From Candidatus Cloacimonadales bacterium (GTDB lineage: Bacteria; Cloacimonadota; Cloacimonadia; Cloacimonadales; JAIOQZ01): DNA of 64,000 nucleotides. The stretch covers positions 1,760,001 through 1,824,000 of the forward strand of contig OY771587.1 in assembly GCA_963674825.1 (NCBI GenBank), read 5' to 3'. Below the pieces are notes generated by a model, which worked only from the letters and a program-made list of their open reading frames with translations, made no database searches and was not told where the DNA came from. Positions 5,264-64,000 of this stretch are shown piece after piece; position 1 is the stretch's first letter, and every line of letters begins with the position of its first letter. The translations under genes were made by a program, and so were the position numbers.

Positions 5264-6789
5264 CTACTTCATCATGATCATCTTTCTCACGAAAGAATGA
5301 CCGGCGCTTGTCATACGATAGAAATAGACGCCGCTGGAAGCCTCTTTTCCTGATAAATCTTTTCCATCCCAGATGACTTCATGTACGCCGGCAGGCTGCA
5401 TTGATTCGACAAGCTTGCGAACCATCCGTCCTCTCAGGTCGTAAATTGTGATTTCGACCGGCCCATCCTGGTTGAGCGAATAGATAATCGTCGTGGTCGG
5501 ATTGAACGGATTCGGATAGTTGGAAAGGAGATTCGTAGCGCTTGGCGGAATATCATCGTCGTTGGTCGGAGTCGATTCGACGGTGATCAGGAACGTATCG
5601 CTGCATGAATCGACGCCGTCACTGGCAATTACGGTTACCTCCGTCTGGCCGGACCAGTCTTGCTGGCAATTGATCCAGAGCGCGTCGCCGTCAAGTTGCA
5701 GATTGATGTCTTGGGTGTTGTAGTCGATCGAATAGGAGAGCTGATCCGCGTCGTCATCGGCGAAATATGCGGTCAGATCCAGATCGACAGCCGGGCAATT
5801 GATCTCCAGTGTGAGATCTTCGAAGGGCTGGTAAATGTAGGGCTCGCCATCACGGTCGATGATCGAAATACCTGTTGTCGCATGGCGTTCCGGAGCGTTC
5901 CAGTCTTCGTAGGCATAGGTCGATTCCACAAGCAAGCCTTCTCCGATGACAATGGAAAAGTCAGTTTCTGGAGCTTCTACATCATATTTTTCCAACTATC
6001 ATCTCCCCAACGAACTACCGACGTCACACCTTCGCCGATATCTGTGGCAAGCTCGCTGGCAAGCGTCAGGTCGCTACGATTCATGGGGACAGTCAATGGC
6101 GTATACGTATTCGCTGCAATATTATAGCTGAATGGTTCAAATATAACGCCATGCGTAATCCAGGTCACATCATATTCTTCTTCGTTCACTACCATTAGAG
6201 AAGCACCAACTTGCAGCTCAAAATCCGTTGAGGGAAATCCTTTAATATAATGTTGCCACCCATATTCCCATGTGGAGATGCATATATTGCCTTCATCAAT
6301 ATCTTCCGCGAGATCGGAAGCGTAAACAAAATCGTTTTCGAACGGAAGCGAGATAAGGCTCATATTGTTCGCCTCAATTACAAACCGATACGAGCCGCAA
6401 ATTTGGCTGGGATCACTGTCCTCACCATTCTGGTATGCGACCACGGTGAAGAATTTCATCTGGTACTCGTCGATAGCGGGATAGACAAACTCATTGTTGG
6501 CGATCATCGCTTTCAGGACATACGGCCCATACGGGAAGATAGATGTATAGAGCTTGTAGTGCGTTGCACCGGATACTTCATCCCATGAAAGGAGCGCACT
6601 ATTGTCCTGAACATCGATCGAAATCCCGGCAGGAGGATTGATCAAAGGCTCGCTAGTGCCACGATCTTTCACGACAGGAAAGCCGCTATCGTTGATTCTT
6701 TCGATATAGAAAGAATTGGAATTCTCGAGCGCGACTATGCAGTTGGTCACTGCCAGTATAAAAAGAAATACCAGTACAGCGAGTCTCAT
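5264..6789 (-). pseudogene. Secreted protein with FlgD/Por-type C-terminal tail, split by a 1-base frameshift (ORFs 5977..6789 and 5264..5995)
   Basis: The upstream ORF has the signal peptide and the downstream ORF has the 'NYPNPFNPTTTI...GVYFYRM' tail. One extra base in the T5 run at 5987-5991 fuses them and restores an internal repeat. Confidence 0.7.
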
Positions 6790-36455: not shown

Positions 36456-36531
36456 GCTGAAATAGCTCAGTTGGTAGAGCAGCTGATTCGTAATCAGCAG
36501 GTCGGGGGTTCGAATCCCCCTTTTAGCTCCA
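36456..36531 (+). tRNA. tRNA-Thr(CGT)
   Basis: gctgaaatagctcagttggtagagcagctgattCGTaatcagcaggtcgggggttcgaatcccccttttagctCCA; 76 nt cloverleaf with encoded CCA. Confidence 0.96.
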
Positions 36532-36733: not shown

Positions 36734-37906
36734 ATGTCCAGGCGATATATCGATATCCAAAAGCTGGTACAGGGAGTTAATGACCGGAATCAGGTAAAGC
36801 TTCGACTACGCAAAGGCAAAGACCGCTATGCGGTATATTACGACTTCTTCGCAAAGGACCCAAATGGAAAGAGTAAGCGCGTGAAGGGGAGGATTGCTCA
36901 CCTCAAATTCTTCGGGGATCGCGAGCATTGCCATGAAGATGCCGAAACACTTCGAGAGGTTGAAGTGTTTATTCAGATTTTGGAGAAGAGATTGTTTTCA
37001 CAAGCTAGCGGTGTCCCCCTGCCCAAGGAAGACAGGGCGATCGATTTTCTCGCTTTTGCCAGGAACGAATATGATAAGCGATGTGAGAAAGCCAAAAATC
37101 AAGGTATCAAGCCGGATAGGAATTATCGGATTACGATCGAGAAGGTGGAGGCATTTCTGGGTGGGAAGAAACTACTCAATATCCACAGCATCGATAATAA
37201 ATTCTGTTCCGATTTTCGTGACTACCTCTGCGGTTTGAAGATCACGAATAACACTGCTCATCATTATTTCGGGGCATTCAAGGCATTTCTCGGACAAGCG
37301 GTCCAGAAGGGGCACCTGCAATACAATCCTGCCAACGGGATCAAGATCAAGTTCCCAGAGCCGAAAAAGGACTTCCTTACCCAGGAGGAGTTGCAAGCCC
37401 TTAACGACAGCAATATAGAATACACACAAATCAGAAACGCCTTCCTCTTCGCGTGCTACACTGGGCTACGGAAGGGCGATATCCTTAACCTCCAAGTCAA
37501 AGATGTTAATGGGGACACAATACAGGTCATCCAGAAGAAGACTGGCAAAATGGTCAGCATTCCTATAGCGGAGACCGCCAGAAAGATTATCGAGAATCAT
37601 ATGCAGTATCTCTCCAGCCAGAAGACTGGTGTTTCGCTGTCTCCCGACAGTAAGTTTTTTTCGCTGCCGTCGAATAGCCGCCTAGGGAAGAGATTGCAGG
37701 CTTGGGCAGAAAGTGCCGGAGTCGAAAAGAAGGTGACCTACCATACCTCACGCCACACCTTTGGAACTCTGCTGGTAAAATCGGGTGTAGATATTTATCG
37801 CGTGAAGGAACTCATGGGTCATCGAGATGTGCGGACGACTCAGGTCTATGCCAAGCTCTCGCATGAAGATTTGCAAAAATCCGTCGAAAAACTTCCCGTG
37901 CTATAA
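36734..37906 (+). CDS. int: Tyrosine recombinase / site-specific integrase
   Basis: 'FLFACYTGLRKGDI', 'HTSRHTFGT', 'MGHRDVRTTQVYAK' (R-H-R-H-Y); SAM-like middle domain. Confidence 0.95.
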   Translation: MSRRYIDIQKLVQGVNDRNQVKLRLRKGKDRYAVYYDFFAKDPNGKSKRVKGRIAHLKFFGDREHCHEDAETLREVEVFIQILEKRLFSQASGVPLPKEDRAIDFLAFARNEYDKRCEKAKNQGIKPDRNYRITIEKVEAFLGGKKLLNIHSIDNKFCSDFRDYLCGLKITNNTAHHYFGAFKAFLGQAVQKGHLQYNPANGIKIKFPEPKKDFLTQEELQALNDSNIEYTQIRNAFLFACYTGLRKGDILNLQVKDVNGDTIQVIQKKTGKMVSIPIAETARKIIENHMQYLSSQKTGVSLSPDSKFFSLPSNSRLGKRLQAWAESAGVEKKVTYHTSRHTFGTLLVKSGVDIYRVKELMGHRDVRTTQVYAKLSHEDLQKSVEKLPVL

Positions 37907-38980: not shown

Positions 38981-39133
38981 ATGGAAGACATAACGATCGC
39001 TAATTATTTGAATGCAGCGGGGTTCTTATGCTCATCGACACCGACACAGAATGTGATAACATCTCTTCAGTTGGCGGAGAGTGACAAGAGCGTTATAATC
39101 TCATTGCCTGACGATGAAGGGAAAGAGAAATGA
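38981..39133 (+). CDS. Small hypothetical protein (50 aa)
   Basis: RBS aaggagg, then MEDITIANYLNAAGFLCS...GKEK; the stop overlaps the next start (ATGA). Confidence 0.5.
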   Translation: MEDITIANYLNAAGFLCSSTPTQNVITSLQLAESDKSVIISLPDDEGKEK

Positions 39134-40734
39134 AGAAGGGGAAACAGCGTCCGCTACGGCCTCCGCTAATTCTTGTATCCGTTGCTGGATATGCCGATGC
39201 CGTTGGGATAACGCGTTCTGCGGCATATAATAGGCTTTCTCAAGCCGGGAGCCGGTCACTTGGGAATGGGCAGGCTGTCATATCGGAAGCGTCCGAGTAT
39301 TTTCCCGAGCTTGCATCTTTGATACGCCACGGAAGAAAGGGCGAGTATGTTTTCTTGACTGAAAGCGGACTGAATGTAGACAGATTCTTAACTGAAAGTG
39401 TACAGAGAGTGGACGGAAACTTGACTGAAAATCCTGGCGTAGCCCAAGAACGCAGGCATAGCCCCGCATTGCCAGATTACACTGACGATACTGAAAGCGG
39501 ACTGAATGTGGACGGAATCTTGAATGAAAGTGGTCTAACGCAGGACTGTTCAGAAACAGTATCAATCTCCTCAACTGACACTCACCTCGAAGTCGCGAGT
39601 AGCCTCCTATCCCTTCAGCCCAAGAACACCACCGTGCGGGATATCGTTGCGAAATCGGCCCTTATAGGGCCGTTTCTTGCCAGACTAGTGATACCGGACA
39701 AGAAGGCCATCGACCAAGCCTCCAGCGCTGGATATGTGCGCCTGTATCGAAAGCTGCTCCATAACGGCGTGTTCGAGAATCCTGGCGTCCTGAAGATGAT
39801 GGTGGCGCTATTGCTCTCTGCGGACTCTTCGGGGAAGTGCCGTGTGTGTGACAGTTTGCTTCGTTTAGGGGACGCTGAAGACGAGTTCCGAATGGCCTCT
39901 ATCATGCTGGCTGTTCTCGAGTTGGAGTATGGCGTGATCCGCTTGTACCGAGAGGATGACGAGCTTATGTGTGAGATCATCAAGTGGCGCAATTATCAGT
40001 CTCCGGGCAATGCCGGCCGTAGCGTATTCCGTGACATTCGGAACCCGGAAAACGTTATCCGCAGCATAGGAGAGAACGAGGGCAATTCCCTCACGTGTGC
40101 GCCCGATACCACCAGAGAAATAGAGATAGAGAGAAAAGAAAAATTTCCTTACGGGAATACAAAGAAAGTTTTGGTCGACGATGATGATCTCCTCGGTAAC
40201 ATCGAAGACAGTAAAGACGTTCCACCTACCGTCGAGCCTCATGAAACAGAGAGAGCAGTGGCTGTGAACGAGAACACCCCAAAAGGGGATACTGATCCCA
40301 CACTATATATAAATAAATATAATAGCGCTCCAGAAACAGGGGAAAAATACGAGCCATCATCACCACTTAGTGTTCCCATTGTGTCACTCATATCTAACAA
40401 AGGGGTACACAAGGGTAAAGTCGAGGGATACTATGATGACCTATCCGATATCACAGGGAAAGGAAGGTCTACTCCAGCATCTGAGCTACCTCCGAAACGC
40501 AGAAAATTTATCCTGCAAGCTAATGCGCTATATGACATTTACAGGACTAGGATAGGCACCAATGGGTCGAGGAAGGAGGTCGTGAAGAGAGCGGCCATTT
40601 TGTTAGAGGAATATTCCTACGTAGAAATATTAGAGGCCATAGCGAATTATGAGGGTGATATTTCCATCATCGGTACCCCCATAGCGCCCTTTTCGTTTAT
40701 CTGGCATAATCACCGCCAACACAAAATGATTTGA
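39130..40734 (+). CDS. Putative phage-type replication initiator / replisome-organizer-like protein
   Basis: N-terminal HTH-like segment 'YADAVGITRSAAYNRL'; 'GYVRLYRKLLHNGVFENP..LKMMVALLLSA...IIKWRNYQ' resembles phage replisome-organizer N-domains. Confidence 0.5.
   Translation: MKKGKQRPLRPPLILVSVAGYADAVGITRSAAYNRLSQAGSRSLGNGQAVISEASEYFPELASLIRHGRKGEYVFLTESGLNVDRFLTESVQRVDGNLTENPGVAQERRHSPALPDYTDDTESGLNVDGILNESGLTQDCSETVSISSTDTHLEVASSLLSLQPKNTTVRDIVAKSALIGPFLARLVIPDKKAIDQASSAGYVRLYRKLLHNGVFENPGVLKMMVALLLSADSSGKCRVCDSLLRLGDAEDEFRMASIMLAVLELEYGVIRLYREDDELMCEIIKWRNYQSPGNAGRSVFRDIRNPENVIRSIGENEGNSLTCAPDTTREIEIERKEKFPYGNTKKVLVDDDDLLGNIEDSKDVPPTVEPHETERAVAVNENTPKGDTDPTLYINKYNSAPETGEKYEPSSPLSVPIVSLISNKGVHKGKVEGYYDDLSDITGKGRSTPASELPPKRRKFILQANALYDIYRTRIGTNGSRKEVVKRAAILLEEYSYVEILEAIANYEGDISIIGTPIAPFSFIWHNHRQHKMI
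39354..39535 (+). repeat. Imperfect 33-bp direct repeats inside the rep-like gene
   Basis: cttgactgaaagcggactgaatgtagacagatt (39354), cttaactgaaagtgtacagagagtggacggaaa (39387), cttgactgaaa (39420), actgaaagcggactgaatgtggacggaat-cttgaatgaaagtgg (39490). Confidence 0.8.
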
Positions 40735-44775: not shown

Positions 44776-45582
44776 ATGTGTACAATCGAGATTCAAAAAG
44801 GGCTGAGCGCACCATTCCCGAGCACGGACATCGAGTTCCGGGTCTGCCGCGTATCGCAACGAACGAAGAAAGCCAACGTGCTGGCGTATATCACGGCACG
44901 GGGCATCATGCGCAGGCTGGACAAGGTCTTCGGTATCGACGGCTGGCGAGACGAATACGAGGTGCTGGACAGCGGTGTCAAATGCCGTCTGTCGGTGCGC
45001 CTGGACGATGCGTGGATCACAAAGGAAGACGTCGCGCAGTTCACCCAGATCGAAGCGCTCAAGGGAGCGTTCTCGGACTCGCTCAAGCGTGCCGGAGTCA
45101 AGTTCGGCATCGGTCGATATCTGTACGACCTGCCGGATTATTGGATTGATGTACTGCCCGAACGTCCACCCAAGAGCGACCGCAAAGCCCACTACCACAA
45201 CTCCGATAACGTCACCGGCTGGTGGCTGGAACCCGTCCTTCCCGACTGGGCATTGCCGGAAAAGGATCATATCGATGATAAGGTCGATGGCAAGCTGATG
45301 GTAAAGCTGGACGACATGCTCGACCGGCAGCTCTTGACCGAATCCAAGCACGGGCATTTCGTGTCGATGTTGTCGTCATCGCAGACATCGGACGCCCGAA
45401 AGAAGCTCATCCGCACGCAGCTTGAACTGATCGAGCTGTGGGAGACGAACGTCCTCAACCACCCCACCATGCCGCAAGCACAGAAACGCGAGCTCTATCT
45501 GGCTGCCCTCAGCGCGACATCGAAAAACGCGCCGTCGGTACGCAAGCTCTTGCAGGAAAGCGGAGCAGAGGAGGCGGCATGA
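44776..45582 (+). CDS. Rad52/Rad22-family (Sak-like) single-strand annealing protein
   Basis: 'LSAPFPSTDIEFRV', 'LAYITARGIMRRLDKVFG', 'KGAFSDSLKRAGVKFGIGRYLY'. Confidence 0.88.
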   Translation: MCTIEIQKGLSAPFPSTDIEFRVCRVSQRTKKANVLAYITARGIMRRLDKVFGIDGWRDEYEVLDSGVKCRLSVRLDDAWITKEDVAQFTQIEALKGAFSDSLKRAGVKFGIGRYLYDLPDYWIDVLPERPPKSDRKAHYHNSDNVTGWWLEPVLPDWALPEKDHIDDKVDGKLMVKLDDMLDRQLLTESKHGHFVSMLSSSQTSDARKKLIRTQLELIELWETNVLNHPTMPQAQKRELYLAALSATSKNAPSVRKLLQESGAEEAA

Positions 45583-46460
45583 ACCTCACGAATCAACACG
45601 GTTTGCCGGACATGCTGGTGCGCGCCATCGAAAGCAACTGGTACTCCGGCGAAGGCGAGAAGCGTTTTGCCTCCGTGACCCAGCTCTTGAAGCCGACCAA
45701 GCAGCTCATCCTGGAGAAACGCCACGCCCGAGCCCTCAAACAGGACGCCAGCGACATGATCTGGTCGTTGATGGGTTCTGCGATGCACAAAGTGATTGAA
45801 GCTGCTGAGGACGCTAATTCGCTCTCTGAGGAAAGATTGCGCGTTGAGATCGACGATGCAGTCATCACCGGCGGGGTCGATTTCTATGAGGACGGCATGA
45901 TCTCCGATTTCAAGTTTACCGGCGTATGGAACCATGGCCGGGCGTCGCGCATCGCCGAGTGGGAAAAGCAGCTCAACATGTACGCCTACCTCTATCGACA
46001 GCATGGCTTTCCGGTCGAGAAGCTTCAGGTCGTCGCCATCTATCGCGATTGGAATCGCGCCCGGTGCGAGAACGACACCGACTATCCCGAGCAGGTTGAG
46101 ACCATCGATATCCCGCTATGGGACGACGAAAAAACGCGCGCCTTTATCGCATCGCGCATCGAAGATATCCGGCAGGCGATGCAGTTCCCGGATGATTTCA
46201 TTCCACCTTGCACCGCCGCAGAACGATGGCAATCCGAGCCGCAATGCGCGGTCTATAAGACCGGTGGCAAGCGTGCTCTGCGCGTATTCCCGACCATGCA
46301 GGAAGCGAAGGATTTTCTCGCCAGTCACAAAGACGCCGCCAACCTTCATATCGTCACCCGCGAGGACACGCCCAAACGGTGCATGAACTACTGTGCCGTC
46401 AATCAGTTCTGCCACTTCTACCGCGATGTTCTCGCCCTACCCATCCCCAAAACCGCATAG
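45579..46460 (+). CDS. PD-(D/E)XK nuclease (Cas4/RecB-like phage exonuclease)
   Basis: 'GSAMHKVIE', 'ITGGVD', 'ISDFKFT', 'QLNMYAYL', C-terminal 'RCMNYCAVNQFC'. Confidence 0.8.
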   Translation: MNLTNQHGLPDMLVRAIESNWYSGEGEKRFASVTQLLKPTKQLILEKRHARALKQDASDMIWSLMGSAMHKVIEAAEDANSLSEERLRVEIDDAVITGGVDFYEDGMISDFKFTGVWNHGRASRIAEWEKQLNMYAYLYRQHGFPVEKLQVVAIYRDWNRARCENDTDYPEQVETIDIPLWDDEKTRAFIASRIEDIRQAMQFPDDFIPPCTAAERWQSEPQCAVYKTGGKRALRVFPTMQEAKDFLASHKDAANLHIVTREDTPKRCMNYCAVNQFCHFYRDVLALPIPKTA

Positions 46461-54231: not shown

Positions 54232-55233
54232 ATGAAAGCATCTCAATTGAAAGAAACGCTGGCGTATGCCATCAAGAACAAGCTGCCCGTGCTGATCAAG
54301 GGCGCGCCTGGAACCGGCAAGAGCGATCTGGTGGCGCAAGCATGCCATGAAGCCGGAGCCGACCTCATTATCAGTCATCCCGTGGTGTCCGATCCGACCG
54401 ACTACAAAGGACTGCCATTCCCTGTTGCGGACAAGGACGAAGCCACCTTTCTGCCCTTCGGCGATCTACTAAGGTTAATCCGCGCCGAGAAACCTACCGT
54501 GTTCTTTCTGGACGATCTTGGACAGGCACCCGCAAGCGTTCAGAGTGCTGTCATGCAGCTGATCTTGGCGCGTCGGGTCAATGGGCACAGCGTGTCGGAG
54601 CATGTCGTGTTTCTGGCGGCAACCAACCGTCGCGAGGACAAAGCAGGTGTGATGGGTATCCTGGAGCCGGTGAAGAGTCGTTTTGCCGCGATTGTCGAGC
54701 TGGAGGTGGACGTCGATGACTGGGTTACGTGGGCGTTCCGCGAGGAAATGCCGGCGGAGTTGATCGCCTTCATCCGCTACCGACCGCATCTGCTCCACGA
54801 CTTCAAACCTACCGCCGATATCGTCAACACGCCCTCTCCTCGAACCGTCGCATATGTGGGCACGATGATGAAGAATGGTTTACCCGAAGACCTGACCTAC
54901 GAGCTGATCGCTGGCGCTGCTGGAGAAGGTTTTGCGACGGAACTCATCGGCTTCCTGAACATTTTCAGGGACTTGCCGGATATCCCGACGTTGATCAAGA
55001 ACCCCGAGAAAGCTGTCGTACCTGAAGAGCTATCGCTGTTATTTGCCATCTGCGGCGCGTTGGTACAGCAGGCGAATCGCAAGAACTTCGGGCATATCCT
55101 GTCCTATGCGGAGCGCATCCCACCGGAGTTTCAGGTGCTGCTGGTCAACGATGCTCAGCGTCGAAATCAAGCGCTCTCGTCCTGTCCCGCCTTCGCCCAG
55201 TGGGCAATCGATCACTACGATATCGTTTTCTAG
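54232..55233 (+). CDS. MoxR-like AAA+ ATPase
   Basis: Walker A 'GAPGTGKS', Walker B 'FFLDD', 'AATNR', 'SRF', 'PSPRT'. Confidence 0.85.
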   Translation: MKASQLKETLAYAIKNKLPVLIKGAPGTGKSDLVAQACHEAGADLIISHPVVSDPTDYKGLPFPVADKDEATFLPFGDLLRLIRAEKPTVFFLDDLGQAPASVQSAVMQLILARRVNGHSVSEHVVFLAATNRREDKAGVMGILEPVKSRFAAIVELEVDVDDWVTWAFREEMPAELIAFIRYRPHLLHDFKPTADIVNTPSPRTVAYVGTMMKNGLPEDLTYELIAGAAGEGFATELIGFLNIFRDLPDIPTLIKNPEKAVVPEELSLLFAICGALVQQANRKNFGHILSYAERIPPEFQVLLVNDAQRRNQALSSCPAFAQWAIDHYDIVF

Positions 55234-55374
55234 CACCCCCTTGATAAAGTGTAGGTTTTCGGAACGGAAACCTGAATCTCTCAACAGGGATTAAGGGGGA
55301 TTCCCCTTTTCTTTAATCGCCTTCATAAACACACAAACCACTATCCAAACATTAATTACAACAAGGAGACCACT

Positions 55375-56232
55375 ATGCCTATCCAAAACAAAGCCATGAT
55401 CGCCCACCTGCATATCTCGACGTGGACTGCGCGAAAATTCGACCGCCGTGTGACCCGCGAGATCGAGGACAACTACGCTGCCAGCAACTCCGGTCGTTAC
55501 AACAAGATACTCATCGCGACCGAGTACCTGGGCAAAATCCAGAAGATCGCCTCCGCAGCCCGTGCCTACCACTATGAAAACACCCTGCCCTGGATGGACA
55601 ACGGCGGACGACTGCTTCCCACCGCCAATTACTTCACCTATGTTCAGCAGATGGACGAATACCGCGCCGAGTTTCTGCGTGAGGTGAACGCCTTTCTGGA
55701 CAGCTATCCCGACTACCAGCAGGAAGCGAGAAACCGCCTCAACGGGATGTACTCCATCGAGGATTACCCTGACATCGATCGTCTGCGACAGAAGTACGCT
55801 TTCTCCGTTCGCATGGCGCCGATCGCTGACGCGGAAGATTTTCGTGTGAGTCTGAATGACGAAGACGTCAAAGCCATCCGTGAGGACTATCGCAAGCAAC
55901 TCGAAGACGGACTGCGTGAAGCACACCAAGACCTGTGGAAACGGTTGCATGGGGTGGTCGGTCACATGCTGGAGCGGCTTTCGACTGCCGATGCGAGGTT
56001 CAAGAATAGCCTGGTCGAGAACATCCGCGATATCTGCCGACTGATGCCCAAGCTCAATATCACCGAAGACCCGCTACTCGACCAGATGGTGGATGAAATC
56101 AAGCAGAAGCTGACCATCCACGCGCCGGAGGTACTACGCAATGACCCGGAAATCCGCAGCGATACGGCTTTGGCAGCGAAACAGATCATCGAGAAGATGC
56201 GGCATTATGCGCCCCTTCGGGAGGCGTCATGA
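55375..56232 (+). CDS. Conserved mobile-element protein (DUF3150-like) between the AAA and vWA genes
   Basis: 'HISTWTARKFD', 'YENTLPWMDNGGRLLP', 'KLNITEDP'. The family call is from recall and position. Confidence 0.5.
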   Translation: MPIQNKAMIAHLHISTWTARKFDRRVTREIEDNYAASNSGRYNKILIATEYLGKIQKIASAARAYHYENTLPWMDNGGRLLPTANYFTYVQQMDEYRAEFLREVNAFLDSYPDYQQEARNRLNGMYSIEDYPDIDRLRQKYAFSVRMAPIADAEDFRVSLNDEDVKAIREDYRKQLEDGLREAHQDLWKRLHGVVGHMLERLSTADARFKNSLVENIRDICRLMPKLNITEDPLLDQMVDEIKQKLTIHAPEVLRNDPEIRSDTALAAKQIIEKMRHYAPLREAS

Positions 56233-57341
56233 ACGCGCGGGAAAAGCTGATCAAGGCAAGGGCGGGTCTGGTTTTGGGTTCGCCCTTTTTCGCAAGTATC
56301 GCGCTCCATCTGAAGCTCGTCGAGGACGCCACCTGCGAGACCGCCTATACCGACTCGGTCGTACTGGGTTATAGCCCGTCTTTCATCGACGAACTGACTC
56401 TGGCGGAGACCAAAGCGCTGATCTGTCACGAGGTGATGCATGTCGCCATGCTGCACGCCTTCCGCAGAAAGAACCGCGATCATCAGATGTGGAACGTAGC
56501 CTGCGACTACGCCATCAATCCCGTGATCGACAAAACCGGGATGCTGTTGCCCGATGGCGCACTCTTCCATCATCAGTACGACAATATGGAAGCAGAAGCG
56601 ATCTATGCAAGGTTGCAGCAAGATAAGACGAGGAAACGACACCAGAAGCCATCCTTCGGTGAGGTGCGGGACTACAAACCCAAGCCCGGTGACCTGCCCA
56701 TGCCACAGCAGATGCAGAACACGAAGATACAAGTCTCGCAAGCCATGACAACCGCCAGAATGCAAGGAAAGTTGCCCCAAGACATGGAGCGCACGATCAA
56801 CGAAATCCTTCAGCCGCAGCTGCCCTGGAAAGAAATCCTGAGTCGTTTCATCACCCAAAACTCCCGAAACGACTACCGATGGAAACAACCCAACGGCAGA
56901 TATCTGCATGCGGGGCTATACCTGCCAACGCTATCAGCCCCATCGCTCGGAACCATTGCTGTCCTGATCGATACCAGCGGCTCCGTCAACCAGACGGAAC
57001 TCGATCTATTCGCCTCAGAGCTGAAATCCATCCTCGCATCCTACCCCGACACAACCATCCACGTCGCCTACGTCGATAGCCACGTAGCCCACCACCACGA
57101 CCTCGCCCTCCACGATTTCCATCTCGAAGCCCAAGGCGGAGGTGGCACCGACTACCGACCCGGTTTCGCCCACATCGAAGATAACTTGATCAACCCCTCC
57201 TGCATCCTCTACTTCACCGACGGCTACTGCGACGCCTTCCCCGATTCATGCGATACTCCAACCCTGTGGATCGTGACGGAACGGCAACGTTTCTCGCCGC
57301 CGTTTGGAGAGGTCGTATATTTGAAGAATGACCAACGATAA
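56229..57341 (+). CDS. DUF2201-type metallopeptidase / vWA protein
   Basis: 'CHEVMHVAMLH', 'WNVACDYAIN', MIDAS 'IDTSGS', 'GGGGTDY', 'YFTDGY'. Confidence 0.88.
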   Translation: MNAREKLIKARAGLVLGSPFFASIALHLKLVEDATCETAYTDSVVLGYSPSFIDELTLAETKALICHEVMHVAMLHAFRRKNRDHQMWNVACDYAINPVIDKTGMLLPDGALFHHQYDNMEAEAIYARLQQDKTRKRHQKPSFGEVRDYKPKPGDLPMPQQMQNTKIQVSQAMTTARMQGKLPQDMERTINEILQPQLPWKEILSRFITQNSRNDYRWKQPNGRYLHAGLYLPTLSAPSLGTIAVLIDTSGSVNQTELDLFASELKSILASYPDTTIHVAYVDSHVAHHHDLALHDFHLEAQGGGGTDYRPGFAHIEDNLINPSCILYFTDGYCDAFPDSCDTPTLWIVTERQRFSPPFGEVVYLKNDQR

Positions 57342-57369
57342 AGGCAGGAGAATACCCTCTGCCTTTTTT
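57341..57369 (+). terminator. Terminator separating the AAA-vWA operon from the cas operon
   Basis: aaggcag...ctgcctt followed by a T-tract. Confidence 0.6.
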
Positions 57370-57545
57370 AGCTATCAGTGCAATTTGCTTGACATTGCGT
57401 AATGGAGCTTATTGATATGGCAAGTATGATTCAGCGCTTTGTCCAAAATGTAAGTATCTTGTTATTTCGGCATGTGCCATGCCTTATATAGCTATAGCAT
57501 CCCTACGAACATAATGAGCCTCAATGCACTAGTAAGGAGACGCCT

Positions 57546-58868
57546 ATGTGCTCTAACGATCAACGCTATAATCTTCTCGATGAGAAATGGTTACCTGTCC
57601 TGACACTTCGTGGAAAGAATGAAAAGCTTGGCATCATCGAAACGCTCGAACAGGCGGCTTCAATCCGCCAAATCGCCCCCAGCAACCCCATGGACCGGTT
57701 CGCGGTCTTCCGGTTTTTGCTGGCTGTGTGCTATTGGTGCGCGGATCGGACAAAGATGCCATTCTCCAAAAATGGTTCTAAGATACCGAGTGAGTGGATC
57801 ATTTTCCTTGAAAGGCGGCGTGATTGCTTTAATCTGCTGGGGGATGGGAAGAGGTTTTATCAATCTAAGAATGGGCATGAGCAATCAATAACCTACTTGA
57901 TTCATGAACTCCCATCAGGTACAAACCATGAGTTTATCAGGCATGTTTGTGATGATCGCTCAGGTTTATGTCCGGCATGTTGCGCACTTGGATTGATTCG
58001 ATTACCTGTATTCACGACAAGCGGTGGAAGAGGCTATTCACCGGGAATCAATGGCACTCCCCCATTGTACATGATTTCTTGGGGTTATAATCTGTATGAA
58101 TTGCTTCGAGCAAATTGGAGAATATCTGATAGCATTGGCCCTCCTTCATGGGATCCCGGCATTCAAGCAAGCATTTCATCAGAAGATATTCCATTACTGG
58201 CAGGATTAACCTCACTTCCTCGATATGTTTGGCTGAAGGAACCAGATCGTGACGAGAATACCGGTATTTGTTCTTTTTGCGGTATACGAACCGATAAACT
58301 TATATCACATTGCGAATACAGTCCGGTAGCAGGAGTTTTCTCCGAGAGTTGGAAAGATCCTTACATCATCGATATCAGTACATCATCGAAACGCAAATCG
58401 CTCATGGTATATAATCTGAAATCCCCAGGCAAGTTCACATTCGATAGAAGGACAAATGAACAACTACCGATGACCCCATCTTGTAATAAGATGTTACTCA
58501 TTGGTTTCTGTGCCGATAAAGCTGAAAACGTTGATGTCTGGGAAAAAACCATTACTCTGTCGTCATCATCCTCTGAGGAAGAAATGGGATCTGTCTGGAA
58601 CATAGCAGCAAGAGAAATCACGAAGAAAGTCAAAGCTCCATTCATTCTTCAAAAAGCAAGACCTCACGTCGAGCAGCTGGTCGCGAATCACATGACCGAC
58701 CTGCTATCGGGCAACGGAAATTACACCTGGGATGACGCCGCGAACGAATACGCACCGTTCATGGAAGCTGCGGCCGAATCGCTCACACCGGATGTGACAA
58801 TCAGGGATGCCCGAAAGCGCAGGGAGATCACACAGGTACGTCCCAAGCTCCCGAAGGAGGACAAGTAA
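57546..58868 (+). CDS. cas8e: Type I-E Cascade large subunit Cas8e (Cse1/CasA), short (440 aa)
   Basis: 'YNLLDEKWLPV', 'FNLLGDGKRFYQ', 'LCPACCALGL', 'GGRGYSPGING', 'WKDPY'; first gene of the operon. Confidence 0.88.
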   Translation: MCSNDQRYNLLDEKWLPVLTLRGKNEKLGIIETLEQAASIRQIAPSNPMDRFAVFRFLLAVCYWCADRTKMPFSKNGSKIPSEWIIFLERRRDCFNLLGDGKRFYQSKNGHEQSITYLIHELPSGTNHEFIRHVCDDRSGLCPACCALGLIRLPVFTTSGGRGYSPGINGTPPLYMISWGYNLYELLRANWRISDSIGPPSWDPGIQASISSEDIPLLAGLTSLPRYVWLKEPDRDENTGICSFCGIRTDKLISHCEYSPVAGVFSESWKDPYIIDISTSSKRKSLMVYNLKSPGKFTFDRRTNEQLPMTPSCNKMLLIGFCADKAENVDVWEKTITLSSSSSEEEMGSVWNIAAREITKKVKAPFILQKARPHVEQLVANHMTDLLSGNGNYTWDDAANEYAPFMEAAAESLTPDVTIRDARKRREITQVRPKLPKEDK

Positions 58869-58869
58869 G

Positions 58870-59358
58870 ATGGCAAGTATCAGCACCTATCGTTTCATCA
58901 TCAACCTTTCGAAGCTCAAATCGGGCGAGCTCAGTCTCCTGCGCACCCACGCCGATCAGGGCCTCGACGAGAGCCTGCAAGGTTTCGATATCTTTACCGG
59001 CATCTGGTGGCCACTCAGGCAGAAGAATCAGCGTGCTCCACGCCGAAGCGTGGCGTGGCTTGTCTGCAAGCTCTACGCCGTCGCACCATTGCCTTTCGAA
59101 AAGGGCGAACACATCATGACGCTCCTTGCCAAGCGACGAAAACAGTTGGATAACGATAAAAGAGATCGTTTCGACAAGCGCGTCGATGAAATGCTCGTGC
59201 AGTCGCTCGATACCATCGAGCCTCATCTTCGGTGGGCCTTGCGAGAGATCGCAAAGCTCGGGTCTCTCGACTGGGCACAGCTTACCGATGATCTTTCCAT
59301 CTGGGAAAGACAGACCACCCGACAAAAATGGATCAACCAATACATCATTCAGCAATAA
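58870..59358 (+). CDS. cas11: Type I-E small subunit Cas11 (Cse2/CasB)
   Basis: ~160-aa helical protein between cas8e and cas7; 'GELSLLR', 'LDWAQLTDDLSIW...QKW'. Confidence 0.8.
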   Translation: MASISTYRFIINLSKLKSGELSLLRTHADQGLDESLQGFDIFTGIWWPLRQKNQRAPRRSVAWLVCKLYAVAPLPFEKGEHIMTLLAKRRKQLDNDKRDRFDKRVDEMLVQSLDTIEPHLRWALREIAKLGSLDWAQLTDDLSIWERQTTRQKWINQYIIQQ

Positions 59359-59370
59359 CAGGAGGAACCC

Positions 59371-60501
59371 ATGCTTATCGAGATTCACGCTATCCAGAAC
59401 CACGCCCCAAGCAACCTCAACCGCGACGACCTCGGCGCACCCAAGACAACCATGTTCGGCGGCTACCTCAGAAGCCGTATCTCCAGCCAATGCCTCAAAC
59501 GTAGTATCCGCACCAGTGACCAATTCAAAGACCTGCTCGGTGGTGTAAGAACCCGCAGGTTGGTACAACTGATAGAAGATCAAATCGAAGGCACGGATGA
59601 TATCAAGACCAAGGTAAGGAAACGTGCGCTCAAAGTGCTCGACAAACTCAATATCGCAGGGAAGAAAGACGAAAGCTCCATGCTGGTTTATACAACCAAA
59701 GACGCTATCTCGAAAATGGCGACAATGTTACTTGAATACCAGGGGGACGAGAAAGACGTAGATGAAGTCTTCAAGGATCAATTCGTTACCCTGATCTCTT
59801 CGAGCACTGCCGTTCCAGATATGGCGCTATGCGGTCGAATGCTGGAGCCGACCGGCGATATCTGGAAGCATAGGAACAACACTGTCGAAGCTGCCCTGCA
59901 AGCCGCGCACGCGATATCGACCCATGAAGCGCGTCCAGAGATCGATTACTACGTCGCAGCAGATGATGTGAAAGGTAAAGACGCGGGGGCAGGATTCGTC
60001 GATGAAGCCCTCTATTCATCCTCTTGCTTCTACAAGTACTTCTCCATCGACTGGGATCAGCTTGTTGGCAATCTTGGCGGTCAGGTCGATCTGGCGGCGC
60101 ACACAGTCGGCGCGTTCATCCGTGCCATGGCGCTGACAACACCGAGCGGTAAACAGAACAGCTATGCCGCGCACAATCCACCGGATGGTATTCTCGTCGT
60201 AATCAAGAAGGATAACAAGACGCCCATCAGCTACGCCAACGCCTTCGTGAAGCCGGTCAGACCCGGTCAGCGAGACCTGGTGGAAGAAAGCATCGCGCAA
60301 CTGGCGCAGTATGTCTCCGAGCTCGATGAAGGCTTCGGTATACAGGCAGAGCGATACTGGTTCTCGCCGGGTAAACGTTACGAATTCAAGAATATGGACT
60401 GCCTTAGCAACTTTGACCAGTTCATCACGGCAATCATGAAAGAGATGGGCTTTGACTGGCAGGATGTCCAGAAAGCGATCGTGGCGGTTCATGATGCGTG
60501 A
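59371..60501 (+). CDS. cas7: Type I-E backbone Cas7 (Cse4/CasC)
   Basis: 'IEIHAIQNHAPSNLNRDDLGAPKT', 'RISSQCLKR', 'AHAISTH', 'PSGKQNSYA'. Confidence 0.96.
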   Translation: MLIEIHAIQNHAPSNLNRDDLGAPKTTMFGGYLRSRISSQCLKRSIRTSDQFKDLLGGVRTRRLVQLIEDQIEGTDDIKTKVRKRALKVLDKLNIAGKKDESSMLVYTTKDAISKMATMLLEYQGDEKDVDEVFKDQFVTLISSSTAVPDMALCGRMLEPTGDIWKHRNNTVEAALQAAHAISTHEARPEIDYYVAADDVKGKDAGAGFVDEALYSSSCFYKYFSIDWDQLVGNLGGQVDLAAHTVGAFIRAMALTTPSGKQNSYAAHNPPDGILVVIKKDNKTPISYANAFVKPVRPGQRDLVEESIAQLAQYVSELDEGFGIQAERYWFSPGKRYEFKNMDCLSNFDQFITAIMKEMGFDWQDVQKAIVAVHDA

Positions 60502-61624
60502 CAACACCCTGTTCCTGCGTCTGGAAGGACCGATGCAGGCGTGGGGAAGCCATGAATCGAAGTTCGTGATCCGGCGCACGAAGGAAGCGCCCACCAAGTC
60601 CGGCGTTATCGGCATGCTCTGCGCCGCGATGGGTCTATCTCGTCTGGAAGCGCAAGACGGCTGGCTCGAAAGGCTATCGGAACTCGAAATGGGCGTGCGC
60701 ATCGATCGCCCCGGCATCCGCTGGTGGGACTGGCATACCGTGGGTGCGGGCATGAAGATGGCAACGGCTGAAGGCGGCAAGAAAGACGGCCCCATGCTCA
60801 CCCGTCGCGAATACCTCTGCGACGCGAGTTTCCTGGTAGCGCTTCGGGATGGCGAAGACCTGATCGATACCCTGTCATCCGCACTCGAAAATCCCGTCTG
60901 GGCGCTATTCCTGGGCCGCAAGAACTGCCCGATGTCGCGACCGGTCAACGAGCACGGCACAAGTAGGTTCGGTTCGCTCGAAGAAGCCCTCGCATCGATC
61001 CCGTGGCCAAGAAGGCATGAAACCTTTATCCAGAAACCGGATCACCTCGACCTGATCCTCGACTGGCGCCCCACCGAAGATCAGCCCGAAGCTCCCGGAA
61101 GAGCCGAAGTCTGGTACGACGTTCCCTTCACCTTCGATCCTCCGTCGCACAGACCGCGTTTTGTCGTTCGATCGTCGATGATTGTCGGCGAAAACGGCGA
61201 TGTGAAGCGCAGTAATGTGATACAGGGCGTAAAAGGCGCATACTCTTCAGAACGCCCCCGCGCCAACTACCAGAATACCGAGTTCCGCAAGAAACGCGCA
61301 GAACGCCTGGAGCAGGATCAAGGTCGCTGCACCTTCTGTGGTTCACCGGCTTCCACGGTCCAGCACATTACCTATCGACGTGCCGGTGGTAATGAATCGC
61401 CCGACGACCTGAAGTCACTGTGCCGTCTCTGCCACGACGCTATCACCATGCTCGAATACGGCGCCAACATGGGCATCGATCGCATCGATCCCACCGATGA
61501 GAAATGGCGTGAGCGTATCCTCGAAAAACGCGCCGAGATCGTGAAATTCCGCAGCAAGAAGACCCGTGATCGCAGATTCAAGGAAAAGGAGGGCGATGAT
61601 GTACCTGTCACAACTACTGATTGA
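60491..61624 (+). CDS. cas5: Cas5e (CasD) fused to a C-terminal HNH endonuclease
   Basis: N-terminal 'LRLEGPMQAWG...PTKSGVIGMLCAAMG...RREYLCDASF...LFLGRKNC'; C-terminal 'RCTFCG...VQHITY...DLKSLCRLCH'. Confidence 0.92.
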   Translation: MMRDNTLFLRLEGPMQAWGSHESKFVIRRTKEAPTKSGVIGMLCAAMGLSRLEAQDGWLERLSELEMGVRIDRPGIRWWDWHTVGAGMKMATAEGGKKDGPMLTRREYLCDASFLVALRDGEDLIDTLSSALENPVWALFLGRKNCPMSRPVNEHGTSRFGSLEEALASIPWPRRHETFIQKPDHLDLILDWRPTEDQPEAPGRAEVWYDVPFTFDPPSHRPRFVVRSSMIVGENGDVKRSNVIQGVKGAYSSERPRANYQNTEFRKKRAERLEQDQGRCTFCGSPASTVQHITYRRAGGNESPDDLKSLCRLCHDAITMLEYGANMGIDRIDPTDEKWRERILEKRAEIVKFRSKKTRDRRFKEKEGDDVPVTTTD

Positions 61625-62336
61625 CACAGGCGGTAATCCCGATCGACCGCGTCCGGGAAGGATGTGGCTCAACAACATCTATCACGTCCACCAGCGGCTC
61701 TCGATGGCGTTCGGCAAAAAGGAAGATCATAATGCCATATTCCTATTCCGCATCGACAACAACATCAGTTCCGACGGCTCGCGCGCGATGATTCTGGTGC
61801 AATCGGAGGAAAAGCCGGATTGGGACCAGGCCTTCCATAACGCGCCTGATTTCCTCGCATTTCCACCGGAATGCAAACCCTACGAGCCTGTCTTTCAGAA
61901 AGGCGATATCCTGCGCTACCGGCTGCTGGCGAATCCCACGAAGAAGATCACGGTGAATCGCAAGAATGTGGATGGTGTGTGGATCGACTGTGAACCACGG
62001 AAAATACGCGTTTCGGTGGGTTACGATATTCAAATGCCCAATGAACTGGATGAAAGGCACAAGGAATGGCTTGAAAGGCAGGCAATGCATAGCGGTTTCG
62101 TCATCAAGAACTTCGAGCTACAACGCCTTTTCCGGGTCGTTGGCTACAGGCCGAATGGTGTTTCAACCAAAAGTGGAAGCTGGAACCTCGACAAGCAGCG
62201 ACTCACCTTCAACGCAGCATTGATGGAAGGAGTCCTCGAAGTCACCGATCCGAGCCAATTCATGGATACGATTCGCAAAGGCATCGGCTCGGCGAAGTCG
62301 TTCGGGTTCGGGCTGCTGTCTGTTATCCGGAGGTAG
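61596..62336 (+). CDS. cas6e: Type I-E crRNA-processing endoribonuclease Cas6e (Cse3/CasE)
   Basis: 'MYLSQL', 'YHVHQRL', 'LRYRLLANPTKK', Gly-rich loop 'GIGSAKSFGFGLLS'. Confidence 0.93.
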   Translation: MMYLSQLLIDTGGNPDRPRPGRMWLNNIYHVHQRLSMAFGKKEDHNAIFLFRIDNNISSDGSRAMILVQSEEKPDWDQAFHNAPDFLAFPPECKPYEPVFQKGDILRYRLLANPTKKITVNRKNVDGVWIDCEPRKIRVSVGYDIQMPNELDERHKEWLERQAMHSGFVIKNFELQRLFRVVGYRPNGVSTKSGSWNLDKQRLTFNAALMEGVLEVTDPSQFMDTIRKGIGSAKSFGFGLLSVIRR

Positions 62337-62346
62337 GAGGCGATCC

Positions 62347-63300
62347 ATGCTGACAAAGGATTATCACGAAGTCCCCAAGGTCCGTGACAAATGGAGCTGG
62401 CTCTACATAGAGCACGGCATCATCGACCGGGAAGACAAGGCCATCGCCGTACACGACCTTCGCGGATTGACGCCCGTTCCTTGCGACAACCTTTCCGTGT
62501 TGCTGCTTGGCCCGGGAACGAGTATCACGCATGCCGCAATAACGACTCTGGCAGACTGTGGATGCCTGGTCGTGTGGAGTGGTGAGCAAGGCGTAAGATT
62601 CTATGCATCGGGAAGCGGTGCAACCAGGAAGGCTTCTCATCTTCTCCGCCAAGTGAAACTCTGGGCGAACGAGTCTTCCCGACTGTACGTCGTACGCAGA
62701 ATGTACGAATTCCGCTTCCCCGAGAAACCGGACCCATCACTGACGCTGGAGCAGATCAGGGGTATGGAAGGCGTAAGGGTTCGTGACGCTTATTTCAATG
62801 CCTCACGCGATACTGGTGTTCCATGGAATGGGCGTAACTACGACCGACGAGACTGGAAGAATGCCGACCCGGTAAATAAAGCGCTATCCGTGGCGAATTC
62901 CTGCCTCTACGGGATATCTCACGCGGCGATAGTGGCTGCCGGATATTCCCCCGCGATCGGATTTGTGCATACCGGGAAGCAGCTATCGTTCGTTTACGAC
63001 GTCGCTGACCTGTACAAGACGGAATTGACGATACCCCTGGCTTTCCAGACCGTTGCCGAAGTGGATAGAAACCTCAACCGCGAGGTGCGCATCCGATGCC
63101 GGGACATGTTCCATAGGCATGGACTCCTCAAACGGATCGTGAAAGATATTCACGGCATCTTAGGCGCTACGCCACCCGAGGATGCCGATGACGACTTCGA
63201 CGCGGATCCGGCAAAACCCGGTGGATTATGGGACCCTGTAACCGGTGAATGTGCCGGCGGTGTTTCCTACGGCGAGGGTGGTGATAAGGAGGAAGAATGA
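62347..63300 (+). CDS. cas1: Type I-E Cas1
   Basis: '[13 protein letters not shown]', 'GEQGVRFYA', '[12 protein letters not shown]', '[11 protein letters not shown]'. Confidence 0.97.
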
Positions 63301-63581
63301 ACGTCATGATTCTCGAGAAGGTGCCTGTCTCACTCAGAGGAGAGCTGACTCGCTGGCTGCTGGAGGTGAAGGCAGGTGTGTTTGTCGGTAATGTCTCCGC
63401 CATGGTGCGCGACCGGCTATGGAAGAAAGTATGCGGTGGTTCCAAAGGCGGCGCTTGCATGATGCTGTGGTCAACGAACAACGAACAGGGTTTTCGTGTT
63501 GACTTCTGGGGTGCCAATAGTAGAATCGTCACAGATTGGGAGGGACTTAAGCTATTGACAAAGCCCTCGAAGCCCGATTAA
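63297..63581 (+). CDS. cas2: Type I-E Cas2
   Basis: '[33 protein letters not shown]', 'NNEQGF', 'DWEGLKL'. Confidence 0.95.
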
Positions 63582-63588
63582 ATCAAGA

Positions 63589-64000
63589 GTATTCCCCACG
63601 CATGTGGGGGTGAACCGTCCTCGCCAGACACTATTCTATAATTGGTTCTGTATTCCCCACGCATGTGGGGGTGAACCGGAGGTATGATATGGCAGGATAT
63701 CTTGGATACGTATTCCCCACGCATGTGGGGGTGAACCGGTCCGATACATCGAACACCACTCCGAACTATTGTATTCCCCACGCATGTGGGGGTGAACCGA
63801 GGTGAAACTCGTTGTGAAGGCAGGAATTGAAGTATTCCCCACGCATGTGGGGGTGAACCGTTGCGCGGTCAGGAATTAAGCCGTGACGTATCGTATTCCC
63901 CACGCATGTGGGGGTGAACCGTCGGCCACCGTGCTGTCCCCAACGCTGTTGTAGTATTCCCCACGCATGTGGGGGTGAACCGAGGGCATCCTGAAGATTA
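63589..64000 (+). CRISPR. Type I-E CRISPR array, 7 identical 29-bp repeats, continues past the window edge
   Basis: GTATTCCCCACGCATGTGGGGGTGAACCG at 63589, 63650, 63710, 63771, 63832, 63893 and 63954; spacers of 32, 31, 32, 32, 32 and 32 bp plus a partial one. Confidence 0.99.

Follow-up and report, generated by a model that had tools for sequence, protein, structure and literature searches.

Can a type I-E CRISPR locus that carries no cas3 still act in immunity, and which nuclease would then cut the target DNA? This question is raised by a locus at the end of a stretch of 64,000 nucleotides, hereafter the window, from a Candidatus Cloacimonadales bacterium (GenBank assembly GCA_963674825.1, contig OY771587.1, positions 1,760,001 to 1,824,000 of the forward strand). 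The host genome is a single contig of 3,893,010 bases and is 99.57% complete. A preliminary description of the window, drawn up from the letters alone, proposed an active immune system in which an HNH domain carried by Cas5 replaces Cas3, rather than a decayed locus or a Cascade that guides a transposon. We put at nearly nine in ten (about 0.88) the probability that the locus is a complete, active type I-E2 system with HNH in place of Cas3. Its gene content, intact frames, catalytic residues, array structure and location on a genomic island were established directly, as was the absence of Cas3.

The effector genes and their characterized homologue

The cas genes are encoded in seven unbroken frames on the + strand at 57546-63581, and the order is cas8e-cas11-cas7-cas5HNH-cas6e-cas1-cas2-array (lengths in amino acids, aa):

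57546..58868, +: cas8e, large subunit, 440 aa (PF09481, E = 3.5e-28; best PDB match 8YB6 Cas8, E = 5.7e-79, its residues 81-509 aligned)
58870..59358, +: cas11e/cse2, 162 aa (TIGR02548 above cut-off; 8YB6 Cas11, E = 3.2e-29)
59371..60501, +: cas7e backbone, 376 aa (TIGR01869, 261 bits; 8YB6 Cas7, E = 3.2e-118)
60494..61624, +: cas5e-HNH fusion, 376 aa (TIGR01868, 144 bits; PF09704 at 5-214; PF01844 at 279-317, above cut-off; 8YB6 Cas5-HNH, E = 1e-127)
61599..62336, +: cas6e, CRISPR RNA (crRNA)-processing nuclease, 245 aa (TIGR01907 above cut-off; 8YB6 Cas6, E = 8e-61)
62347..63300, +: cas1e integrase, 317 aa (TIGR03638, 385.6 bits against a cut-off of 215.6; Cas1 Glu, His and Asp motifs present)
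63297..63581, +: cas2e, 94 aa (TIGR01873 above cut-off)
63589..64000, +: CRISPR array, first 7 of 18 repeats in the window (the array extends to window-equivalent 64653)

These coordinates agree with the preliminary description, which had placed the cas8e-to-array series some 200 bp after a gene for a von Willebrand factor type A (vWA) protein: the vWA/DUF2201 gene ends at 57341, leaving a gap of 204 bp to cas8e. Six of the seven Cas proteins (Cas11, Cas7, Cas5, Cas6, Cas1 and Cas2) score above the NCBIfam type I-E cut-offs; Cas8e falls below that of TIGR02547 (59.9 bits against 70.05) and above that of PF09481 (99 bits against 24.7). In the Escherichia coli protein, these three Cas1 motifs have a catalytic role. 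Contigs from two public runs of one sample span 57207-62309 and 62285-63438 with zero differing letters; because the runs may be of the source sample itself, this agreement speaks solely against assembly error.

All five effector subunits find their best PDB match in the HNH-Cascade of Ca. Cloacimonetes, 8YB6. A five-gene, I-E-related system of this kind was described by Altae-Tran (2023; PMC10910872), with most examples lacking cas3 and some retaining remnants of it. The accessible portions of that paper report interference dependent on a protospacer-adjacent motif (PAM), 32-nt spacers, cuts 3-4 bp and 8 bp past the protospacer, collateral cutting of single-stranded DNA (ssDNA) and indels in human cells, all activities being abolished by HNH inactivation. 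Liu (2025; PMC11794572), likewise accessible in part, names H310, D324 and H333, states that H310A and D324A abolish cutting, and finds W46, R49 and Q53 of Cas11 to be required. In both papers, as far as their accessible text goes, the homologous complex cuts DNA when purified alone. The Cas5-HNH variant is designated I-E2 and is typically without Cas3 in the accessible part of Makarova (2025; PMC12669027), and a commentary likewise describes it as typically Cas3-free (PMC11822464).

The marks of this type are all found here. I-E-type Cas8e, Cas11, Cas7e, Cas5e and Cas6e are encoded in one operon, and HNH lies at the C-terminus of Cas5, in a single 376-aa frame that aligns to chain A of 8YB6 through the HNH domain. 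This domain takes up about the last 120 residues and bears CxxC pairs at 279/282 and 310/313. The catalytic His-Asp-His set is present, H310, D324 and H333 of the tested protein aligning to H291, D305 and H314; Y278 and Q309 of that protein are kept, and T306 is replaced by Ser. Cas11 retains W47, R50 and Q54, the partners of the HNH linker that correspond to W46, R49 and Q53 of the homologue. Absence of cas3 and an array with 32-nt spacers and a hairpin repeat complete the set. On sequence comparison, the locus is judged to be a type I-E2 HNH-Cascade, a kind already described in 2023 and with solved structures, and to be a new, moderately distant orthologue. It is no new system: cryo-EM structures have been solved, and interference by a Cas5-HNH Cascade without Cas3 is known from E. 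coli, from human cells and in vitro. New here are the 18-repeat array, the 44.8-kb tRNA-Thr island and the co-occurrence with Cas9 in one genome.

A working scheme can be proposed. Cas1 and Cas2 would add 32-nt spacers at the cas2-proximal repeat, Cas6e would process the transcript of the array into 61-nt crRNAs by cutting at the hairpins of the repeats, and Cas8e, Cas11, six Cas7, Cas5-HNH and Cas6e would assemble into Cascade. Once the PAM has been read and an R-loop has formed, the HNH of Cas5 would cut both strands a few bases past the PAM-distal end, so that no Cas3 would be needed. Loading of crRNA, plasmid interference in E. coli, two-strand cutting, the need for the HNH residues and collateral ssDNA cutting are expected by extension from the homologue.

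Protein matches were obtained in 22 of 232 genomes of the phylum: this genome, 14 with Cas5-HNH, three with plain Cas5e and four with the HNH piece only. A scan with one genome per species gave nine loci, in Ca. Cloacimonadales, Phycisphaerae, Sumerlaeia, Pirellulales, Chthonomonas and Planctomycetaceae; an HNH domain query of viral_contigs found no relative. After removal of the duplicates L054, L056 and L057, the set of related loci numbered 21, and gene order is identical in all of them as far as the contigs reach. Both cas1 and cas2 are complete in 18 of the 21 (cas1 is mostly deleted in two, and a contig end cuts one), and their presence is the norm for the Cas5-HNH family. Among the 20 loci whose HNH domain is whole, 13 have Asp at the second catalytic position, six have Glu and one has His. 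One Cas5-HNH relative with His in place of the catalytic Asp (L058 8780-9133) adjoins two arrays, of 12 and about 21 repeats.

A locus of the same genus, L045 (4882-11127), is a mosaic: its Cas1/Cas2 are 95% and its Cas11/Cas5-HNH 86% identical to those of the window, its Cas8 only 47%, its Cas7 66% and its Cas6 68%, while Cas8 of another same-genus locus, L046, is 91% identical. The pattern in L045 suggests subunit swapping, perhaps with a change of PAM. In the window, cas8e (57546-58868) has a G+C content of 46%, against 55% for cas11-to-cas2 and for the three genes upstream, a low value that would fit separate acquisition of cas8e.

The search for Cas3

The preliminary description had seen no HD/helicase frame for Cas3 in the window and had proposed a search of the whole genome and of the region past the array. 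Neither search found a cas3, and because the genome is closed, the absence is firmer than in fragmented assemblies. TIGR01587 gave six matches in the whole genome, of which the best reaches 48 bits (cut-off 102); no match of PF18019 or TIGR01596 was above cut-off, NF007248 gave no match, and the one match of PF22590 above cut-off is RecG. The six TIGR01587 helicases were rejected as Cas3, being RecG, Mfd, a DbpA-type DEAD box protein, an MrfA-like protein, an SNF2 protein and SngC of a Shango system (Pfam, PADLOC). The best HD match, ahead of five weaker TIGR01596 matches, was rejected as an HDOD protein. None of the genome-wide helicase or HD matches listed falls inside the window, and Pfam recognized no helicase or HD family in 29 of the 32 open reading frames (ORFs) of at least 200 aa in 1-50000 (three overlapping shadow frames being left out) or in one more ORF. 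No Cas3 is encoded in the 20 kb past the array, where a TPR/sigma-54 activator, a protein of 3160 aa, a RhuM-family gene and a serine recombinase are found.

Two canonical I-E loci of the same phylum, L079 and L080, served as a positive control. Their Cas3 proteins, of 857 and 899 aa and encoded directly upstream of Cascade, score 207-210 bits with TIGR01587 and 477-495 with NF007248, and a Cas3 of this kind would have been detected. For PF18019 and TIGR01596, 5 of 14 genomes gave controls above cut-off. The argument for absence is built on these two profiles together with the in-phylum control, because TIGR01587 and NF007248 did not lift the E. coli control above cut-off.

In 14 related genomes, TIGR01587 detected Cas3 in one, on a different contig from the HNH locus; PF18019 placed the same one above cut-off and gave two more marginal matches (G054 and G117). 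Four of these 14 genomes are less than 90% complete or more than 5% contaminated. None of 21 long ORFs selected from those listed for the related loci is a Cas3.

Elsewhere in the genome (G000:C1 near 389600; L007 187-2874), an 896-aa helicase of MrfA/HRQ1 type has an HNH inserted before its zinc-binding domain; no array lies nearby.

The array, its targets and the cas2 junction

The adaptation genes had been called intact, the seven repeats identical and the visible spacers different, and this holds beyond the window. The cas1 and cas2 frames are whole, and the seven identical 29-nt repeats that start at 63589 with a period of 60-61 nt are the beginning of an array in which all 18 repeats are identical and all 17 spacers differ (16 of 32 nt, one of 31 nt). 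The fold of the repeat is a hairpin with a stem of 7 bp and a loop of 4 nt. None of the spacers recurs in the arrays of 19 other loci. In runs X2 and X3, one contig each has a spacer-like end beside the same repeat, at window positions 63584 and 63767; these ends are absent from the 20 spacers of the genome and may belong to another strain or species with the same repeat.

The mapping of spacers to phage and plasmid DNA, suggested earlier as the route to protospacers and a PAM, yielded neither. The array gave three chance-level pieces only against 50,697 phage records, nothing but repeat matches among the plasmid matches listed (15 of 416), and repeat matches plus two 27-nt pieces overlapping repeats against the 232 phylum genomes. 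Exact 21-24 nt stretches had no match, for four of the 20 spacers in viral_contigs and for one of the 20 in metagenome_contigs. When 320 pooled I-E spacers from 20 loci, together with the type II spacers of this genome, were compared with the genome and the related loci, nothing outside arrays matched at fewer than seven mismatches. A 19-nt self match of spacer 2 was taken as chance, with seven mismatches over the full length.

The cas2 stop is separated from repeat 1 by 7 bp. Among 20 related loci the distance is at most 15 bp in 15 and 47-59 bp in five; the Cas3-bearing controls L079 and L080 have 86-87 bp, and AT makes up 73-75% of the last 60 bp ahead of the repeat there, against 55% here. 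Variant repeats occur in 7 of 17 arrays, and because they are never among the first three positions, the cas2-proximal end is still the growing end of the arrays. The I-E integrase of E. coli depends on an integration host factor (IHF) site and on a motif some 50 bp upstream of the repeat, according to the accessible part of a preprint (bioRxiv 10.1101/2023.05.26.542337); the equivalent of that motif would fall inside cas2 here. The genome has two HU/IHF-family genes, neither of which scores above an IHF cut-off.

Silent sites were compared in ten short-junction cas2 genes, this one and nine of the same order, three same-genus loci being left out as too close. Four-fold silent sites conserved in at least eight of the ten sequences make up four of six within 60 bp of repeat 1, against two of 58 elsewhere in cas1 and cas2, in a comparison of small numbers and kin sequences with a stretch chosen after inspection and two related loci as control. 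Given the short junction and these conserved sites, we attach even odds to the proposal that most I-E2 loci, this one included, have no separate leader and carry the signals for Cas1-Cas2 within the last ~45 coding bases of cas2. Speculatively, spacer addition without Cas3 would perhaps be primed by the clean break that HNH makes. If the proposal is true, the cas1-cas2 module and a repeat would form a very compact, self-contained recorder. A literature search found no study of I-E2 adaptation or of such a junction; the supplements of PMC10910872 may already show cas1-cas2 and the junction. The locus makes it testable how I-E2 acquires spacers without Cas3 priming, with a leader apparently inside cas2.

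The island, rival explanations and known systems

The surroundings of the locus bear on how its function is read, and comprise the following features:

36456..36531, +: tRNA-Thr(cgt), left attachment (att) site of the island (ARAGORN)
36734..37906, +: tyrosine integrase of the island (PF00589, PF13102; phrog_1)
39130-40734: 534-aa protein without family match, island
44776-45582: Rad52/Erf-like annealing protein, island
45438-46460: phage-type exonuclease, island
54232..57341, +: AAA ATPase, DUF3150-like and DUF2201 metallopeptidase/vWA genes, island backbone and not cas (Pfam; PHROGs 1297 and 1314)
57341..57370, +: hairpin and T run 3' of the vWA gene, possible terminator (fold -11.7 kcal/mol)

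The HNH-Cascade locus is carried on an island integrated at tRNA-Thr, since the tRNA gene is followed by the integrase and a 53-bp exact copy of its 3' part lies 44.8 kb downstream, outside the window. The island thus measures 44.8 kb, from window position 36456 to genome position 1841373, with a serine recombinase beside its right end, and also encodes several large secreted proteins. Two same-genus genomes have this tRNA 3' sequence as well, some 25 kb upstream of the locus. PADLOC found no match in the AAA/DUF3150-like/vWA trio (54232..57341). As for the terminator described after the vWA gene, the hairpin and T run are there (z of -2.27, with 5 of 200 shuffles equally good), but a consensus terminator scan made no call.

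A second CRISPR system, with Cas9 (1025 aa), cas1, cas2 and 31 repeats of 36 nt, lies 170 kb away (L013 10973-17420; G000:C1:1995972-2002419). The trio that precedes the HNH-Cascade (window 54232-57341) has a broken copy (L013 9645-10679, in pieces 85-90% identical) directly before the Cas9 locus, and the two CRISPR systems therefore occupy one and the same place in a related mobile backbone. A complete Shango system (SngA, SngB and SngC; L013 3786-9541) is found just upstream of the Cas9 locus.

The alternative that survives best, though improbable, is an intact-looking I-E2 locus that is silent or dying, a recent cargo of the island that is unexpressed or no longer adapting while the Cas9 system, with its 31 repeats, does the work. 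Several observations weigh against activity and in its favour. Two of the three same-genus loci are decayed: L046 has lost nearly all of cas1 (6193-6524), and in L051 (6100-10603), where an integrase-core gene of insertion-sequence type breaks the locus, cas8, cas11, cas7 and the greater part of cas1 are gone. The genome itself holds two remnants. The first (G000:C1:1837673-1838063; L001 14674-15064), inside the island and 13.2 kb past array 1, consists of 180 nt that copy the cas2 3' end at 94% identity and, after them, a second array, with four repeats, the last with one change, and three spacers absent from array 1. This is the leftover of a second I-E2 locus, whose crRNAs, if transcribed, could load the same Cascade. 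In the second (G000:C1:1974546-1974703; L002 9547-9704), 125 nt that copy the cas6e 3' end at 92% identity lead past the cas1 start codon directly into one variant repeat; cas1, cas2 and spacers are gone. Array 1 ends in a 32-nt stretch after its last repeat, with no terminal repeat, and its far end has probably been cut off. A sigma-70 scan called no promoter upstream of cas8e. Further points count against the active reading: no search produced a protospacer or a PAM; the HNH-Cas6 interface departs at several residues from that of the tested protein (H295 is Gln and K302 is Gly here); and Cas8e is only ~36% identical to Cas8 of L061, a near-identical relative of the tested system.

Against silence or decay stand the seven whole frames, the kept catalytic residues, the 18 identical repeats and spacers that are unshared with relatives. 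The preliminary description was right in setting decay aside, all seven frames being whole, and its replacement of Cas3 by HNH is borne out by the experiments on the closest homologue; the word 'active' is an extension from intactness only. No protospacer, PAM or expression data were found; expression of this copy and protection of its host are inferred, and a working, Cas3-free I-E2 system remains the reading that we prefer.

A CRISPR-associated transposon (CAST), in which Cascade would guide the integration of its own island, is already largely refuted and has very little probability left. The resemblance is to the I-F3, I-B2 and I-E varieties, which likewise place a Cas3-less Cascade on a mobile element, and the island does carry a tyrosine integrase and a serine recombinase. 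To our knowledge, most CASTs have neither cas1-cas2 nor an intact nuclease site. Here, in contrast, both cas1-cas2 and an intact Cas5 nuclease are present, and at the island's ends the tRNA-Thr 3' part is repeated over 53 bp, as is typical of ordinary insertion by a tyrosine integrase. None of the 20 spacers has a full-length match to the tRNA, the att sites or elsewhere in the genome. Scanning of the island proteins (of the small ORFs, a part) found no transposase, only the two recombinases, the serine recombinase having a weak transposase-labelled PHROG match on its resolvase domain. RNA-guided insertion is unlikely because no self-targeting spacer and no transposase were seen. The earlier statement that the Cascade guides no transposon is upheld in so far as no transposon genes were seen on the island; the TniQ profile PF06527 had no match, but gave none in the control genomes either.

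Least probable of all is interference through a helicase or nuclease supplied in trans (a divergent Cas3 or the Shango helicase). For it can be said that only 'most' such systems lack cas3 and some keep remnants, according to PMC10910872, and that a true Cas3, unlinked to the HNH locus, is present in one of the 14 related genomes. Against it, five Cas3 profiles found no Cas3 here, every helicase match has a better other family, and the homologue is reported to cut DNA when purified alone.

The Cas3-free I-E2 system that we favour can thus be placed among known relatives. Canonical I-E loci (L079 and L080) share with it the Cas8e, Cas11, Cas7e, Cas5e, Cas6e, Cas1e and Cas2e families and a 29-nt hairpin repeat; they have an upstream Cas3 and no HNH on Cas5, whereas here Cas3 is absent and Cas5 bears HNH. 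Type I-F4 of Selenomonas (accessible part of PMC10910872) is alike in that an HNH borne by Cascade replaces Cas3 and makes a precise break; there, however, the subunits are of type I-F and HNH is on Cas8, whereas here they are of type I-E and HNH is on Cas5. The closest system is the I-E2 of Ca. Cloacimonetes ADurb.Bin088, which has the same five effector genes, C-terminal HNH on Cas5 with His-Asp-His, 32-nt spacers, 61-nt unit, lack of cas3 and phylum. The ADurb.Bin088-like locus L061 likewise carries cas1, cas2 and an array, and its Cas5-HNH is 98% identical to the PDB chain, with 9 of 382 positions differing. Identity of the window's proteins to those of L061 is 36% for Cas8, 38% for Cas11, 50% for Cas7, 52% for the Cas5 part, 61% for the HNH part and 45% for Cas6. 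Cas5-HNH is without an insert of about 20 residues after position 94 here, and the gap from cas2 to the repeat is 7 bp against 50 bp in L061. So distant an orthologue might read a PAM different from that of ADurb.Bin088, and would be of modest use for tool mining.

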